A stretch of DNA of 32,000 nt, taken from the NCBI GenBank assembly GCA_019056805.1, contig DXJG01000002.1, positions 493,103 through 525,102 of the forward strand, in the 5' to 3' direction. The notes below the pieces were generated by a model. It saw only the letters and a list, made by a program, of their open reading frames with translations, made no database searches and was not told where the DNA came from. Numbering within the stretch: position 1 is the first letter of the stretch; each line of letters begins with the position of its first letter. Shown here one piece after another: positions 16,609 through 27,237 of this stretch. Origin of the DNA: Candidatus Baldrarchaeota archaeon. Its GTDB lineage: Archaea; Asgardarchaeota; Baldrarchaeia; Baldrarchaeales; DXJG01. Both the position numbers and the translations under genes were made by a program.

Positions 16609-17199
16609 TTATCTTGTCTTTTTTATCTTCTGCAATCTCAACAATAGCTCTCTGGCTTGGGAGTTTTTTTCGAAGTATTCTCTTACAGGTTTCAAAAATT
16701 CTATTAGTGCCTCTGCCGCGGCATTTTTTAGATCCAATGGGTGAAGTTCACCCTTTAAATATATTTGTTCTAATTCGGGATAACTTTCAACAATTAAATC
16801 TCCACCATACTTTTCGGGTCTATGTATCTCTAATGTAAAATCATCTCGTGCAAATAATAAGTACTTATTTATTTCCATAATCGGATTAAATTCTATATCT
16901 TTTGGTGGACAATAAGCTTGTTTAATCTTTTTCCTTATATCTTCCGGTGTATCATGAACAAATATACATGTTTCAGGCAGACTTTTACTCATTTTCGTAT
17001 CTAAAAGAATTTCTTCTCTTGATTTTCCCGTAACATCCATCCTTCCTACCCCAGCCAAACCTGAGAGAAGAGGTGTATGAACAGCTACCGGCTTTCTTCT
17101 ACCAAGTTTCGGTGCAATATCCCTACATAACATGTGGACACTTCTTTGATCCATTCCACCATAAGCTACATCCACATCAAGAAGAAAAACATCTGCTGC
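16609..17199 (-). pseudogene. tyrS: 5'-truncated tyrosyl-tRNA synthetase (C-terminal ~196 codons intact; HIGH-motif half missing)
   Basis: AADVFLLDVDVAYGGMDQRSVHM...KMSKS...AYCP...LHPLDLK. An in-frame TAA (17200-17202) sits where the Gln of YPxMQAAD is expected, and I found no TyrRS similarity further upstream on the minus strand. Confidence 0.85.
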
Positions 17200-17214
17200 T
17201 TAGCGCGCGCTAAG
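17199..17214. repeat. Perfect 16-bp palindrome CTTAGCGCGCGCTAAG at the tyrS breakpoint
   Basis: Read directly and self-complementary. AACATC copies lie at 17188-17193 and 17215-17220. Confidence 0.9.
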
Positions 17215-17669: not shown

Positions 17670-18743
17670 ATGGATGTAGAAGAAAGATTAAATTTGATTA
17701 AACGACCACCAACAGAAGAAATAATAACAGAAGAGGAGTTAAGAGAGCTTCTAGAAACCACTACCCATCCTAAGCATTACATAGGATTTGAAATTTCCGG
17801 TTTATTACACTTAGGAACTTTAATAATATGTGGTTATAAGATAAATGACTTAGCAGAAGCTGGTGTTGACGTTACAGTTTATCTTGCAGATTGGCATAGT
17901 TTTATCAATAAAAAGCTAGGTGGAAACTGGGAAAACATTCTAAAGGCTGCAAAGTATTATGAGAAAGCTTTTAAATTCTTTTGTCCCAAAGCAAAAATTG
18001 TTCTTGGATCAGAATTATATCATCATAACGATGAGTATTGGAAAGATGTTATAAGATTCTCTTCGCATATAACGTTGGCCAGGAATGTACGTTGCCTAAC
18101 AATAATGGGAAGAAGTGAAAAGGAAAAATTAAATTTTGCGCAATATATTTACCCGCCCATGCAAGCTGTGGATATAAAATATCTGGGTGAAGATATACCA
18201 CATGGTGGGATGGATCAAAGAAAGGTTCATGTTTTAGCAAGAGAAGTATTTCCAAAACTTGGTTGGAAAAAACCCGTAGCACTTCATCATCATTTGTTAA
18301 TGGGTTTGGCAGGACCACCGAGAATAAAAACTAAGGATAAATTAGAGAAAGTAATTGCAATGAAAATGAGTAAAAGCAAACCATGGACATGTATATTTAT
18401 TCATGACTCTGAAGAACAAATAAAGAAAAAACTATTAAAAGCATGGTGTCCCGAGAGGCAGGTTGAATTCAACCCTGTATTAGAATTGGTTAAATACATA
18501 ATTTTTCACGAAAAAAAGGAGTTCTTAGTTGAGAGGGAAAGTAAACATGGCGGAGATATAGTTTTTTCTTCTTATGAAGAGTTGGAAAAAGAATACATTA
18601 AAGGGAATCTCCATCCTTTAGATTTGAAACTATCTGTCGCGCGAGAAATCTCAAATATACTAGATCCCATCAGGAAGTATTTTGAAAGACCATCAAATAG
18701 GAAATTGTTAAACGTTTTTAAAGAAGTTAAAATTATAAGATAG
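17670..18743 (+). CDS. tyrS: Tyrosyl-tRNA synthetase, archaeal type, full length
   Basis: YIGFEISGLLHLGT (HIGH), LADWH, YPPMQAVD, GGMDQRK, KMSKS, LHPLDLK. GGAGG RBS. Confidence 0.96.
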   Translation: MDVEERLNLIKRPPTEEIITEEELRELLETTTHPKHYIGFEISGLLHLGTLIICGYKINDLAEAGVDVTVYLADWHSFINKKLGGNWENILKAAKYYEKAFKFFCPKAKIVLGSELYHHNDEYWKDVIRFSSHITLARNVRCLTIMGRSEKEKLNFAQYIYPPMQAVDIKYLGEDIPHGGMDQRKVHVLAREVFPKLGWKKPVALHHHLLMGLAGPPRIKTKDKLEKVIAMKMSKSKPWTCIFIHDSEEQIKKKLLKAWCPERQVEFNPVLELVKYIIFHEKKEFLVERESKHGGDIVFSSYEELEKEYIKGNLHPLDLKLSVAREISNILDPIRKYFERPSNRKLLNVFKEVKIIR

Positions 18744-20091
18744 AAACTATATTTTTGATGGTTTTTCCAAAGTCTGTTAATTCCCAACATTCTTGATTAT
18801 TTTTTCCGCTAACTCGTCTAACAATACCGCTTTTTTCCATCGATTTTAGAAGTCGCATAATAAAATAGCCGTTTCTTCTTATGGAATTTTGAAGCTCGAG
18901 CGTTGTAAACTTAGAATTCATAATGTTAAGGTAGCTTAGTACTCTATATTTTCGATGAGATTTTAAAGCATATGCGAGTATATTGAATTGTTTGGAATCC
19001 TTAGGAAAGATTTGCATAATTTCAATTAAGCTGCGCCAGTTCAAGTACGAGGTCAAGATGAAAAGGTTTCTTGCTTTAGATTTTTTAATTTTACCTTTAA
19101 TGTTCACATGACTCAGTATTTTTTCATAATCTTTTATGTACTGTTCATTGCTTTCAAAAATTTGTAATCTCACATTTAAAGAATTGTTTTTGTCTCTATA
19201 ACAATATACATTACCATCTCCAAGTAACAGTCCTTGTAAAAAGAATTTTAGTATGTCCTTATCAGGATTAGATTTTGTTAAATATCTTCTAATTTCATTC
19301 ATTGCATTATAGCAAAATTCCGCCAGTAAGGAATTTGTTACCCAAAGTTTAATTGTAAATTCTTTTACTCTTTCTATTTTTCTTGTGAAAATATTTTTGT
19401 TTGGAATTCCAAGTTTGATCAAAAATGACTTTACTTTTTTGACTTGATTAAACTTTGGATTTATTGAGATAGTCGCATTGAATAACGATATATCAATAAA
19501 AGTTTTAGATAGTTGAAGAAAGTCAGAAATGATTGTCAACGACTTATTAGTAAAGCTAAATTCCCTTCCCCTGCGCCGCTTTAGAATGGTTTTTCCCCCT
19601 TCCGCTTGTAGATAACCCAACAATTTTGCAAAACTCTTCGAAACGTATCTGTTAAACACTATTTCTTTAGGTCTACCTTTAGCTGGATACCACAAAAATA
19701 TATTATTTTTATAACACCTACAACATATAGGAAAACCTGACATAGTTTTTTGGATTAAAAAGTAAAGTAGATCTATAGAATTCCCATTTAACATTTTAGT
19801 TGGTTTCTGTGCAGCTTCCACTTTTTTAATATGCATAGTGATGATTTGACCTTTTTTTAGTTGGAGAGCTTCTCTACACTTTTTGGGAATAATGATTCTC
19901 CTTCCCTTGGTGAAATAAGTAACAAAAAATTTAGTTCCAATATTCGTAGTTATTCCTATCTCCAAAAATCCATTGTTTATCTTATTTTGTATTTGAGCTG
20001 GTACCCAAATACGATTACCTTTGTATACTAGTTTCAATTTCATACATATTTGTGGTTTTGAATTAATAAAAAGTCCACCATTTTGTATCAA
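18733..20091 (-). CDS. Free-standing double-LAGLIDADG endonuclease-like protein with N-terminal AbrB/SpoVT-like and C-terminal winged-helix-like regions
   Basis: LAGLIDADG-like helices AKLLGYLQAEGG and FFLQGLLLGDGN with acidic residues retained. KGRRIIIPKKCREALQLKKGQII is AbrB-like. FTTLELQ...LLKSMEKSGIV...WELTDFGK is wHTH-like. Start uncertain (TTG 20091 or ATG 20043). Confidence 0.75.
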   Translation of the reverse strand: MIQNGGLFINSKPQICMKLKLVYKGNRIWVPAQIQNKINNGFLEIGITTNIGTKFFVTYFTKGRRIIIPKKCREALQLKKGQIITMHIKKVEAAQKPTKMLNGNSIDLLYFLIQKTMSGFPICCRCYKNNIFLWYPAKGRPKEIVFNRYVSKSFAKLLGYLQAEGGKTILKRRRGREFSFTNKSLTIISDFLQLSKTFIDISLFNATISINPKFNQVKKVKSFLIKLGIPNKNIFTRKIERVKEFTIKLWVTNSLLAEFCYNAMNEIRRYLTKSNPDKDILKFFLQGLLLGDGNVYCYRDKNNSLNVRLQIFESNEQYIKDYEKILSHVNIKGKIKKSKARNLFILTSYLNWRSLIEIMQIFPKDSKQFNILAYALKSHRKYRVLSYLNIMNSKFTTLELQNSIRRNGYFIMRLLKSMEKSGIVRRVSGKNNQECWELTDFGKTIKNIVSIL

Positions 20092-20253
20092 TACTCGAAA
20101 TTTTTTAATTTATCAAAATCAAAGCTTGAACCTTATATTTATTTATAATCCCCCAGGAAGAGATAAAATTTTCAATACTTTTCGCTTTTCAGCAAGGAAA
20201 GTTTCGCTCTCCAAAAATATAAAAGAGAATATCTGTCTAATTTTTCTTACCTA

Positions 20254-20778
20254 TTATTTCTTCAATCTTTTCAATAATTGATGAATAAGATCTATTGCTG
20301 ATTCCAATAAGGAAAGTTCATACTCTATTTGTTTTTTCAATTGTTCCTTATATTCTTTACGAGTAATCGGATCTGATATTTGATTTATTTTCTCGAACCT
20401 ATTGACTAGCTTCCTAATCGATGGATATTTACTCAATATTTCCACATTTCTTTCCGTGTAGGGAGTTGATAATTGATGCACGTGTACACCCTTAGGTGAG
20501 ACTTCCAATAGAAGTGTTAGATTACGAGATATTTGAAAATATCTTCTAGGCGGCCCCCCTTCCACTGGCTTTATAAAAGAGTCAATTAGTCCACATCGAA
20601 GAAGTTTATCTATATATTTTTTAAGGACCCACCTATGCATATCCAGCTCTTCTATTAGTTGAGACCAATATTTTGGTTCATTAAGAGCTTGAAGTATTTT
20701 TAGACAGTTTCTACCCGAAAGAGCCTTTAACAGCTCTATTATGTCCTCTAATTCTTTTTCGGACTCTCTATTGGTCAT
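20254..20778 (-). CDS. ArsR-family wHTH regulator, Phr/HSR1-like heat-shock repressor candidate
   Basis: LLKALSG..CLKILQAL...LIEEL...KYIDKLLRCGLIDS...GGPPRRYFQI with a C-terminal coiled region. Divergent from Hsp20. Confidence 0.8.
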   Translation of the reverse strand: MTNRESEKELEDIIELLKALSGRNCLKILQALNEPKYWSQLIEELDMHRWVLKKYIDKLLRCGLIDSFIKPVEGGPPRRYFQISRNLTLLLEVSPKGVHVHQLSTPYTERNVEILSKYPSIRKLVNRFEKINQISDPITRKEYKEQLKKQIEYELSLLESAIDLIHQLLKRLKK

Positions 20779-20816
20779 TGCAGGGACCCTCTATGTTAGA
20801 TAATAGAATCGTTACC

Positions 20817-20882
20817 TTTATATATGTATCACCTATTAGTGACCATAGTCACCTAATAGTGACATTTCCTATTAGGAGGTGA
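20817..20882 (+). promoter_or_regulatory. Hsp20 promoter: TATA box, tandem operator and RBS
   Basis: TTTATATA at 20817-20824. TCACCTA(T/A)TAGTGAC at 20829-20843 and 20849-20863 (20-bp period, each TCAC-N6-GTGA). GGAGGTGA at 20875-20882. Confidence 0.75.
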
Positions 20883-20888
20883 ATTCAA

Positions 20889-21368
20889 GTGGCAGACTGG
20901 GAAGATCCCCTAGAAAAAGAAATAAGAAAAATACTTGAAAAAATGATAAAAAACTTCACGATAATTTCAGAAATCGATCCAGGAGAGGCCCAATTTTTCG
21001 GTTATGAACGAATAGAAATTACACTACCCAACGGTAAAAAGATAATTAAAGAACGAAGAACGCCCTCAATCAACAACCATCCAATACTGAATGTAATTAA
21101 AGAAAGCCAACCGGAACAAGATGTCTCAAGCTTTCTAAGCGATGTAATCCGAACACCAAACGAAGTTATAGTCATCGCCGAAGTACCTACACTTGACGAA
21201 AGAGACGTAAATTTTGAAATCAAAGATGGAGCCGTTAGAATTTTCTGCAATGGTGAAATGATCCACGAAATTAAGATAGAAAACGATGTTGATCCTACCT
21301 CCATCAAAAAAGAATTCAAAAACAGAATCTTAGAGCTCAAAATACCCTTAAAAAAGAAATCCAAATAA
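20889..21368 (+). CDS. Small heat-shock protein (Hsp20/alpha-crystallin)
   Basis: DVIRTPNEVIVIAEVP...DVDPTSIKKEFKNRILELKIP resembles the alpha-crystallin domain of archaeal Hsp20. Confidence 0.82.
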   Translation: MADWEDPLEKEIRKILEKMIKNFTIISEIDPGEAQFFGYERIEITLPNGKKIIKERRTPSINNHPILNVIKESQPEQDVSSFLSDVIRTPNEVIVIAEVPTLDERDVNFEIKDGAVRIFCNGEMIHEIKIENDVDPTSIKKEFKNRILELKIPLKKKSK

Positions 21369-25546: not shown

Positions 25547-26041
25547 ATGAGTGTAAAAAGATTTTTTGCAAAGCATGGTTTTATCACAAACGGTATGCGT
25601 GTTAATCTCATAGGAGAAAAATTTTATACATTAATGGTAGGTATAGCCGACCTACTTAAAGAGAACTTTGGAGAGAAGGGTGAGCAACTACTTATCGATC
25701 TTCTAAGAAAATTTGGAGAAGAAGATGGAAAAAGATTAAAAGAAGAGCTAAAGCTCGGCAACGATATAAACGATGCCGCTGATGCATGGATTATTATGGG
25801 TAACATTTTCAAAGTCAAAATGTTTACCCGCAAAACTAGCGATAAGGAAATAGAGTTTTACCATCCAAATTGCCCTATGTGGAACTTTTTTAAATCCAAA
25901 GGAAAAATATACTGCGAAACTCTATGCTTACCCTATGTTGAGTCAGTTGTTAAAGCCATTGCCCCAAATATCGATATGGAGATTGTTCATCCACCTACAA
26001 TTGAACGTACCTGCGTCAAAAAACTAGTCGTCAAAAGTTAG
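25547..26041 (+). CDS. V4R/ATC-hydrolase-like small-ligand-binding protein
   Basis: FGEEDG...AADAW...NCPMW...CETLC...TC Cys pattern typical of L-2-amino-thiazoline-4-carboxylate hydrolase-like/V4R folds. GAGGT RBS. Confidence 0.6.
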   Translation: MSVKRFFAKHGFITNGMRVNLIGEKFYTLMVGIADLLKENFGEKGEQLLIDLLRKFGEEDGKRLKEELKLGNDINDAADAWIIMGNIFKVKMFTRKTSDKEIEFYHPNCPMWNFFKSKGKIYCETLCLPYVESVVKAIAPNIDMEIVHPPTIERTCVKKLVVKS

Positions 26042-26575
26042 CTTCGGATATCTACCAAACTTTTTTCTAAATTCCTCCACATAGTATTGCAAGGTACGAG
26101 CTGAAAAACGACTTCTATCTATTTTCAATTTTTGTATAATATCCTCTATATCTTCTTTATTTCCCTCTACCTCAATAAAGGACCCTATCTCTGGAAAAAT
26201 ATCCAACATTATTTTTACTTTTTTATCTTTAAACTCGTATATTTCCCTGATTCTATCCACTCTGAACACTTGTTTAAAACCAAGATGTTCAAAAATCTTA
26301 ATCGCGTTAAAACCATCACTAACATGAACTTCAACTTCTTCTCTAACCTTGTATTTTTTATCGGCTATTCTAGGACCTTTAAAAGTTATCATACCCTCGC
26401 CATTCTCAAAAACCCGTATTCTAAAAACGTAATCTTTCCTTTGAAACTCTCTATTTCCATAGTCAAAACTAAAATCCCTAATCAAATTTTTAAAAACCAA
26501 TTTCCCACCAATAGTCCTTATCTTTTTCCGCACTTCTTCTACATCGTCAACTTTCGCTTTAACTTCAATTTCCAT
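26024..26575 (-). CDS. cyaB: CYTH-domain protein (class IV adenylate cyclase / triphosphate tunnel enzyme)
   Basis: EIEVK (ExExK), FRIR, ITFKGP, REEVE, RIREIY, LDIFPEIGSFIEVE. ATG 26575. Confidence 0.88.
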   Translation of the reverse strand: MEIEVKAKVDDVEEVRKKIRTIGGKLVFKNLIRDFSFDYGNREFQRKDYVFRIRVFENGEGMITFKGPRIADKKYKVREEVEVHVSDGFNAIKIFEHLGFKQVFRVDRIREIYEFKDKKVKIMLDIFPEIGSFIEVEGNKEDIEDIIQKLKIDRSRFSARTLQYYVEEFRKKFGRYPKLTFDD

Positions 26576-26658
26576 ATTATTGTAAAAACCATCACCAAAC
26601 ATTTTAACTTTCTCTTATCAACTACTCACATTACTATCCAAAATACGACTTCGCAAGC

Positions 26659-27237
26659 TTACACTGACTGATATTTCCTGATTGCGTATATTAATAATTG
26701 TGCTAATTCCTGAAATGCTGGCTGTACATTTTCACCGGTTTTGGCGGAAGTCTCTATAAAAACTATCGGAACGTCAAATTTTTCCTCTAAATATCTTTTT
26801 AGTATTTGTCCTTCCTCGTTGCTGACCCAGTCACGGCTTGGATCTGGTGGTGTATCTATCTTAGGTCTAAGATCTATTTTATTTCCAACTAAAACTACTG
26901 GTACTTTTCCAGTATTTTTCACTAACTCTTCCATCCAAAAGACTGTATTCTTAAAGGTACTTCTTCTCATTACATCATAAACAAGTAATGCTCCACTTGT
27001 GCCTCTATAAAAGGATTCTCTTACTGCTTTGAAGTGTGGTTGTCCAGCTAAGTCCCATATTTGAAACTTAACCTGAACCTCATCAGATAACTTGATATCC
27101 ATCACTGCAAAGTCAGCACCAATAGTCATTATATATGCACTGTCGAAACCTTCGCCCATAAATTTTCGTCTAAGTGCCGTTTTTCCGACACCACCATCGC
27201 CAATTAAGACAACTTTGAAAAGATAACTGTTTTTCAT
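26659..27237 (-). CDS. Rab-like small GTPase, paralogue 1
   Basis: G1 GDGGVGKT, G2 TIGADF, G3 WDLAGQ, G4 NKID, G5 ETSAK. No C-terminal Cys. Confidence 0.95.
   Translation of the reverse strand: MKNSYLFKVVLIGDGGVGKTALRRKFMGEGFDSAYIMTIGADFAVMDIKLSDEVQVKFQIWDLAGQPHFKAVRESFYRGTSGALLVYDVMRRSTFKNTVFWMEELVKNTGKVPVVLVGNKIDLRPKIDTPPDPSRDWVSNEEGQILKRYLEEKFDVPIVFIETSAKTGENVQPAFQELAQLLIYAIRKYQSV
27017..27076. repeat. 60-bp exact repeat, copy 1 (inside GTPase paralogue 1)
   Basis: TCTCTTACTGCTTTGAAGTGTGGTTGTCCAGCTAAGTCCCATATTTGAAACTTAACCTGA, identical to 27751-27810. Confidence 0.95.

Follow-up and report, generated by a model that had tools for sequence, protein, structure and literature searches.

A mobile tyrS cassette encoding a free-standing AbrB-like/double-LAGLIDADG/winged-helix protein in a Baldrarchaeota archaeon

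The Cassette and the Native tyrS Gene

The DNA considered here, called the window throughout, is a stretch of 32,000 nucleotides from a Candidatus Baldrarchaeota archaeon (assembly GCA_019056805.1, contig DXJG01000002.1, positions 493,103 to 525,102 of the forward strand). From position 17202 to about 20227 it contains an inserted cassette made up of a 468-bp leader, a foreign gene for tyrosyl-tRNA synthetase (TyrRS), tyrS, and a gene encoding a protein of the LAGLIDADG type, below called the nuclease gene, together with its upstream region. The foreign tyrS is found at 17670-18743 on the plus strand; it is full-length, encodes 357 amino acids (aa) and scores 434 bits against the TyrRS model NF006330. 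The nuclease gene occupies 18733-20043 on the minus strand, and its 3' end overlaps that of the foreign tyrS by 11 bp. An identical tail-to-tail overlap is present at two other loci, L036 and L100. To the left of the cassette, at 16609-17199 on the minus strand, lies what remains of the native tyrS, namely its C-terminal 196 codons with no internal stop. The genome contains two matches to tyrS, and only the foreign copy is intact. The original prediction, which was made from the letters of the window, described the nuclease gene and missed the main point: this gene is one half of a tyrS-plus-nuclease cassette that has displaced the native tyrS.

The borders of the cassette were set by the break in homology to two related loci. 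The first, L089, is a metagenomic contig from a sister lineage whose synteny with the window extends over 14 kb, the nucleotide identity being 87-89%. Between its Phr-like and TrmB genes is an intact native tyrS encoding 364 aa, and there is no cassette. The second, G001, is from the same genus; its native tyrS is likewise intact, and the corresponding syntenic position is empty. Homology to L089 stops at 17201 and resumes at about 20215-20228, and homology to G001 breaks at the same place. The 3.0-kb cassette replaces about 0.57 kb of ancestral DNA, comprising codons 1-167 of the native tyrS and 40-70 bp upstream of it. The promoter and the 5' half of the native gene have been removed by the cassette, and only the 3' remnant is left. 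Contigs from a second sample span both junctions without differences. Identical fragments of the cassette were found in two further read sets (X3 and X4), none of whose contigs spans the left junction. The non-coding parts of the cassette gave no match to the other collected loci using blastn or tblastx.

The foreign TyrRS is 46-49% identical to the TyrRS of G001 and of a same-order genome, the values for same-genus lineages being 48-49%. In the TyrRS tree it is found in a tight clade with 100% support in the Shimodaira-Hasegawa-like approximate likelihood ratio test (SH-aLRT), together with proteins of 65-84% identity from metagenome-assembled genomes (MAGs) labelled Thermoproteota, Brockarchaeota, Bathyarchaeia, Aenigmarchaeota, and Micrarchaeaceae. 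The remnant was assigned to the native gene by sequence identity and by its place in the same tree. It is 85% identical to the TyrRS of G001, 67% identical to that of a same-order genome, and 91% identical to P0249, the TyrRS encoded by the intact gene of L089, where the site is empty. In the tree the remnant groups with G001 and G004, and these three form a clade with G012 (99% SH-aLRT). The nearest named TyrRS of the native type is that of Ca. Baldrarchaeia (72%), from which the host is probably an Asgard archaeon. When the remnant is compared with the intact L089 gene, the non-synonymous divergence (dN) is 0.039, the synonymous divergence (dS) 0.52 and the dN/dS ratio 0.075. Given this ratio and the lack of stops, the native tyrS must have been inactivated only recently.

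TyrRS of the cassette type, 357 aa long, are 65-84% identical across MAGs labelled as several archaeal phyla, one MAG being labelled as a Geobacterales bacterium (L039-L041 and L068-L071). They are far more similar across phyla than the native TyrRS are within one phylum. From this cross-phylum identity it follows that the tyrS allele of the cassette may have been widely transferred, including to genomes where the nuclease gene is now absent.

The Nuclease Gene and its Three-domain Protein

The open reading frame (ORF) at 18733-20091 on the minus strand was confirmed, and is open up to a TTG at 20091. The homologues, and a database copy of 436 aa (P0002), begin at the methionine at ORF residue 17, corresponding to the ATG at 20041-20043. 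The gene was therefore taken as 18733-20043, and this ATG is probably the true start, giving a protein of 436 aa. Residue 1 of the structural model thus equals ORF residue 17. The model was made by AlphaFold2 from an alignment of 40 sequences, and has a mean predicted local distance difference test score (pLDDT) of 92.9 and a predicted template modelling score (pTM) of 0.89. It was compared with 48,161 representative PDB chains without Foldseek pre-filtering, and the matches are given below as VIA Z scores.

The N-terminal domain (19804-20043, minus strand; ORF residues 17-96) is a single-chain AbrB-like swapped-hairpin barrel formed by two repeats. Model residues 1-80 match PhS018 (2glw), a single-chain AbrB-like barrel, with a Z of 11.6 and a root-mean-square deviation (rmsd) of 2.6 over 80 aligned residues. 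The AbrB sequence profiles stay below their cut-offs (19.5 against 28.3 bits for TIGR01439, and 15.1 against 24.7 bits for PF04014). One clear and one possible AbrB-like repeat had been proposed from the sequence; the barrel match means that both are real. This domain is followed by a conserved stretch (19651-19803, minus strand; residues 97-147) which is either a β-rich linker or an N-terminal extension of the nuclease core. Among 12 close homologues, Asp107, Leu109, and Gly139 in this stretch are invariant and Trp134 nearly so. In the fold search I-Tsp061I, WhiA, and some intein homing endonucleases align from about model residue 83-89.

The double-LAGLIDADG core (18997-19650, minus strand; residues 148-365) is the only domain that was recognized above a Pfam cut-off, with 26.2 bits for LAGLIDADG_3 (PF14528) against a gathering cut-off of 22.5. 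Model residues 132-349 match I-DmoI (2vs8) with a Z of 12.8 and an rmsd of 3.1 over 168 residues, and I-DmoI is also the top-ranked Foldseek match (E = 7e-7). The LAGLIDADG fold expected from the letters is accordingly found in the predicted structure. PI-PfuI and the TliVMA intein endonuclease match the core with Z scores of 12.5-13.5, and WhiA (3hyi) with a Z of 11. When the PDB was searched by sequence the best solved relative was again I-DmoI, at a marginal E of 0.02. The first helix ends at Glu164 (codon 19600-19602, in LQAEGG), followed by Lys167 (19591-19593), while the second ends at Asp292 (codon 19216-19218, in LLGDGN). The two acids are 128 residues apart, which is the spacing first noted in the sequence. 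LQAEGGKT aligns with VAEGDKT of I-DmoI, which contains Glu117 and Lys120, and LLGDGNVY aligns with the region around Asp21 of I-DmoI.

The C-terminal domain (18736-18996, minus strand; residues 365-452) is a MarR-like winged helix-turn-helix. Model residues 349-436 match the winged helix of MarR (5h3r) with a Z of 10.7 and an rmsd of 1.6, and dozens of other winged helix-turn-helix chains match with Z scores of 9-10. The sequence signal for this domain is a weak Pfam EarA hit only, no Pfam family being above its cut-off. The winged-helix tail suggested earlier is thereby borne out by its fold.

No match to a Pfam intein or Hint family was found in the protein, and no tRNA or Rfam family in the 32-kb window, so that the original statement about missing splicing motifs and host RNA genes stands. 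The protein is free-standing, outside both intron and intein, in one of which LAGLIDADG homing endonucleases usually, though not necessarily, reside. No solved PDB chain spans all three domains, neither in the sequence search nor in the fold search, and none of the papers in the library searched mentions LAGLIDADG together with AbrB. The ESM Atlas contains only unannotated archaeal clusters with partial versions of this architecture. The three-domain architecture is without a characterized representative, as had been suspected when it was first noticed.

Conservation and Distribution of the Family

An exhaustive search using HMMER identified a family of 105 cluster representatives at 50% identity. 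Most of these are 380-510 aa long and are matched over most of their length. Where they have been given a name in the databases, they are called "hypothetical" or "AbrB family." The named genomes encoding members are from Aenigmatarchaeota, Woesearchaeota, Pacearchaeota, and Nanoarchaeota, as well as one MAG labelled Methanosarcinales. The family is mostly found in DPANN archaea, is unannotated, and is rare and patchy. In the phylum of the window only one of 301 sampled genomes has a match, and that is the genome of the window itself, while matches were found in 21 of 201 genomes from the phylum of an Aenigmatarchaeota member and in nine of 201 from that of a Woesearchaeota member.

Conservation was scored over 40 members down to 19% identity. 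Glu164, Asp292, Gly159, Phe180, and Asn182 are invariant in all 40 homologues, Lys167 is present in 39, and Lys183 in 25. According to the alignment, Glu164, Asp292, and Lys167 correspond to the acids that bind metal, and to the lysine, in I-DmoI. The collection of homologues and of their gene neighbours, which had been put forward as a check, thus showed both that the catalytic residues are kept and, as described below, that the nearest clade adjoins tyrS.

Several copies of the family contain in-frame stops. Two genomes have three matches each, and in one of these, G478, two of the three are adjacent halves of one gene. At codon 60/61 the nuclease gene of L036-L038 (L036:7064-8373) is frameshifted by -1, in all three of these independent assemblies. 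A variant designated P0003 has an altered C-terminus. The tyrS linked to the nuclease gene in this cassette is by contrast 96% conserved. When the nuclease genes of the window and L036 are compared the dN/dS is 0.21, and the gene has therefore been under selection. Selection combined with frameshifted and broken copies fits the cycle of invasion, fixation, and decay of homing endonuclease genes.

Linkage to tyrS and Other Core Genes

The nearest clade consists of proteins 32-41% identical to that of the window, and every member with enough flanking DNA adjoins tyrS. Such loci are the window, L002, L003/4, L009-L014, L016, L017, L036-38, L043, L100, and the contig encoding P0014. The two genes are convergent in the window, L009, L010, L013, L014, L016, L017, L043, and L100, divergent in L002, L003/4, and L012, and in tandem in L011. 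P0014, from a Logan contig of SRR13394437, is the closest homologue outside the lineage of the window (41%), and its gene has class-Ib synthetase genes on both sides, encoding 373 aa and 478 aa. This contig may be a second case of two tyrS-type genes beside a nuclease gene. On L002, an Aenigmarchaeota contig, a gene for an 1811-aa topoisomerase containing two LAGLIDADG-bearing inteins (L002:1-2382) is found 3.6 kb from the tyrS-nuclease pair.

More distant clades, represented by L005-L008, L018-L021, and L074-L088, have other neighbours. They adjoin rpl12/rplP0 at at least five loci, often with a gene for an XPD-like helicase on the other side. The remaining neighbours are alaS, taw1 (twice), tfb (twice), the aIF5B gene, and gatD. 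As DPANN genomes are rich in such core genes, weight is given only to the pairs that recur. An rtcB with two inteins and a gene for an intein-bearing DHH protein next to fibrillarin were also seen beside members of these clades.

Lateral Spread of the Cassette

The same cassette is found at the same site in L036-38, three independent assemblies from a more distant lineage. The right junction of L036 is within about 7 bp of that of the window. Its native remnant is longer than that of the window, the first codons being those of the HIGH motif; it is homologous to the empty site from TCTT(G/A)TTCAT onward, which encodes L-V/I-H. Between the window and L036 the genes of the cassette have a dS of 0.44-0.45, while the host genes of the left flank and the native remnant have a dS of 1.1-1.6. 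The closest relative of the window is the empty L089, with a flank dS of mostly 0.33-0.75. The cassette, being much less diverged than its hosts and missing from the closest relative, must therefore have reached both lineages laterally, and it did so at the same site. Filled sites in the window and in L036-38, empty sites in L089 and G001, and the lateral spread between them show that the cassette is mobile. The native tyrS and that of the cassette display many synonymous differences at the codons of the HIGH motif, which is what a recoded rescue copy would need.

Sequences Flanking the Cassette

A perfect 16-nt palindrome, CTTAGCGCGCGCTAAG, is found at 17199-17214. It sits on the left junction, where the homology to the native tyrS stops. 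It is GC-rich, carries the only GCGCGC of the window, and is absent from L036-38 and G001. A near-copy with one mismatch is found once elsewhere in the genome (C9:136037). Compared with L036, a further 613 bp are deleted in the window, and the palindrome lies exactly on the junction of that deletion.

The genes for the Phr-like regulator and Hsp20 (20254-21368) are found right beside the cassette. Between the window and L089 they have a dS of 0.10-0.16, compared to 0.33-0.75 for their neighbours, while they are 59-69% identical to G001 at the amino acid level, compared to about 85% for their neighbours. This pattern suggests a separate recombination or allele replacement at this position. The lower divergence of the same two genes between the window and L036 had been taken to indicate co-conversion of the right flank; this was dropped, as L089 shows that the right flank of G001 is the outlier. 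Further to the right, genes for small GTPases of the Arf/Ras/Roc type are found beside a CYTH gene (26024-27237 in the window and L089:1-518), which, together with the Baldrarchaeia-like native TyrRS, fits an Asgard host.

Function of the Cassette

The protein is best read as a free-standing, monomeric double-LAGLIDADG homing endonuclease that is predicted to be catalytically competent. The original prediction had left two options, an active homing nuclease or a domesticated regulator. The invariant catalytic residues, the rare and patchy distribution with some broken copies, the filled and empty sites, and the lateral spread favour the first, and the regulator is the less likely. Taking into account the fold, the conserved catalytic residues, the link to tyrS, the loss of the native tyrS to the cassette, the occurrence of the site in both states, and the transfer between lineages, the cassette is probably an active homing endonuclease with a linked tyrS that would be immune to it.

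The proposed mechanism is as follows. The nuclease gene and tyrS make up a mobile two-gene module, and the nuclease would cut tyrS alleles that come without the module, possibly in the DNA encoding the HIGH motif. The surviving cells would be those that repair the break by acquiring the module, whose tyrS is presumed to differ at the cut site and to supply the essential function. The resident tyrS would in this way be displaced by a homing, or cut-and-rescue, element. The AbrB-like barrel and the winged helix probably extend or anchor the recognition of DNA, and may in addition repress the nuclease's own gene.

Several observations weigh against such an element. The foreign and the native tyrS are in opposite orientations, so that simple gene conversion does not account for the insertion. 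A junction at the HIGH motif was observed only once, in L036. In the DPANN genomes that were checked the linked tyrS is the sole tyrS and there is no remnant, which fits a vertically inherited pair of regulator and target as well. The identity to the nuclease of the window is 32-41%, while that of the linked TyrRS spans 33-72%, so that nuclease and tyrS have not been strictly co-inherited. Transcription factors are where AbrB and winged-helix domains are typically found. Finally, no nuclease gene lies near five close relatives of the foreign tyrS that were sampled, and a constant nuclease linkage of its tight TyrRS clade was rejected for this reason.

In the likelier of two alternatives, the LAGLIDADG scaffold has been domesticated to a WhiA-like DNA-binding regulator of the adjacent tyrS or of neighbouring translation genes, and the cassette is an ordinary horizontal transfer of a regulator together with its target. 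Two classical transcription-factor domains (AbrB-like and MarR-like) and a conserved adjacency to tyrS would suit such a role; the divergent layout in L002, L003, and L012 is characteristic of regulator-target pairs, the dN/dS of 0.21 shows that there is selection on the protein, and WhiA is a precedent. However, the metal-binding acids, which WhiA has lost, are found in 40 of 40 members and the lysine in 39 of 40, and most of the tyrS-linked copies are convergent, which is unusual for a regulator acting locally. Only 4-10% of the sampled DPANN genomes have the gene, which is present in 1-in-301 frequency in the host phylum, and several copies have stops or frameshifts. Nor does a regulator give any reason why the pair should land exactly in the native tyrS in two lineages that are not sisters. 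This alternative is on these grounds considered unlikely.

A second alternative keeps the active homing endonuclease and places its target elsewhere, in intergenic DNA or at another locus, so that the foreign tyrS hitch-hiked and the redundant native tyrS was lost later. The incomplete co-inheritance of nuclease and tyrS described above would agree with this, the nuclease gene of L011 seems to be found beside a tyrS typical of its own phylum, and the right junction of the window is in intergenic DNA. The link to tyrS nevertheless persists in every orientation and in several phyla. The left junction is inside the native tyrS, whose promoter and 5' end were removed in one step, and no stage with an intact duplicate has been seen. 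The remnant has also undergone nearly no neutral decay, which means that the native gene was lost when the cassette was inserted. This alternative is regarded as improbable, slightly more so than the regulator.

An intein or intron setting was discarded, as there is no Pfam intein or Hint match and no Rfam or tRNA match in the window; a maturase role by analogy to I-AniI, bI3, and CYT-18 was rejected because no structured RNA was found nearby, and membership in WhiA because the catalytic acids are kept and LAGLIDADG_WhiA (PF14527), at 10.8 bits (E = 0.56), falls short of its cut-off of 23.2.

If the homing endonuclease with its immune tyrS is accepted for the window, the neighbours of the more distant clades invite a wider and more tentative proposal. 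The family might consist of natural cleave-and-rescue elements, each cutting one essential information-processing gene and travelling with or beside a copy that is immune. Across archaeal phyla, aminoacyl-tRNA synthetase genes and other core genes would then be displaced by foreign copies through the action of such elements, in this case from a donor of the TACK/DPANN type to an Asgard-like host. This generalization is possible, and is held with clearly less confidence than the reading of the cassette itself.

Comparison with Known Systems

It is well known that foreign copies often take the place of aminoacyl-tRNA synthetase genes, and to our knowledge no mechanism has been tied to this pattern. 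In the window one such replacement has been caught very early, with a stop-free native remnant and an incoming tyrS joined to a nuclease gene with conserved active-site residues. It documents gene flow from a pool of the TACK/DPANN type into an Asgard-like archaeon, and the proposed homing offers a testable mechanism for the foreign displacement of an essential aminoacyl-tRNA synthetase gene.

The closest characterized enzymes are I-DmoI and its monomeric archaeal kin (I-Tsp061I, PI-PfuI, and the TliVMA endonuclease). The acids at the helix ends and Lys167 align with Asp21, Glu117, and Lys120 of I-DmoI. The present protein differs from this group by being outside any intron or intein and by the addition of the AbrB-like barrel and the winged helix. 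Furthermore, the order of the motifs is swapped relative to I-DmoI, AEGxK coming first and GDG second, and the sequence similarity is marginal (E of 0.02, as given above). If the protein is a nuclease, this is a new free-standing LAGLIDADG architecture with two accessory DNA-binding domains, and members of the family could serve as scaffolds for meganucleases with long targets.

The yeast HO endonuclease is likewise a free-standing LAGLIDADG protein, and has an extra DNA-binding domain appended. In the "intronless homing" of the T-even phages, a free-standing nuclease gene (Seg or Mob) is found beside a conserved essential gene and spreads with the flanking immune variant of the target. Seg and Mob belong to the GIY-YIG or HNH enzymes and operate from one phage genome to another, whereas the protein described here is of the LAGLIDADG type and is encoded in cellular archaeal chromosomes; its gene is accompanied by a complete replacement gene and has passed between archaeal lineages that are far apart.

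WhiA, the domesticated regulator of Gram-positive bacteria that combines LAGLIDADG and helix-turn-helix domains, has lost the catalytic acids and lysines (PMC3384342). The likeness to WhiA/DUF199 is structural (3hyi, Z of 11). The catalytic residues are kept in the present family, WhiA has no AbrB domain, and the C-terminal domain is here of the MarR type; moreover, the family is archaeal, rare, and patchy, and not universal.

The nearest parallel to the proposed mechanism is synthetic. In cleave-and-rescue (ClvR) and home-and-rescue drives (e.g., PMC7968924), a nuclease directed against an essential gene is tightly coupled to a version of the same gene that has been recoded and is resistant. 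Those drives are engineered Cas9 constructs in insects, while the cassette is natural and prokaryotic and would be guided by a protein, with presumed cleavage and immunity. Should the nuclease cut the resident tyrS, the cassette would be a natural, protein-guided counterpart of the cleave-and-rescue drives, and this would account for the displacement of an essential gene that exists in a single copy.

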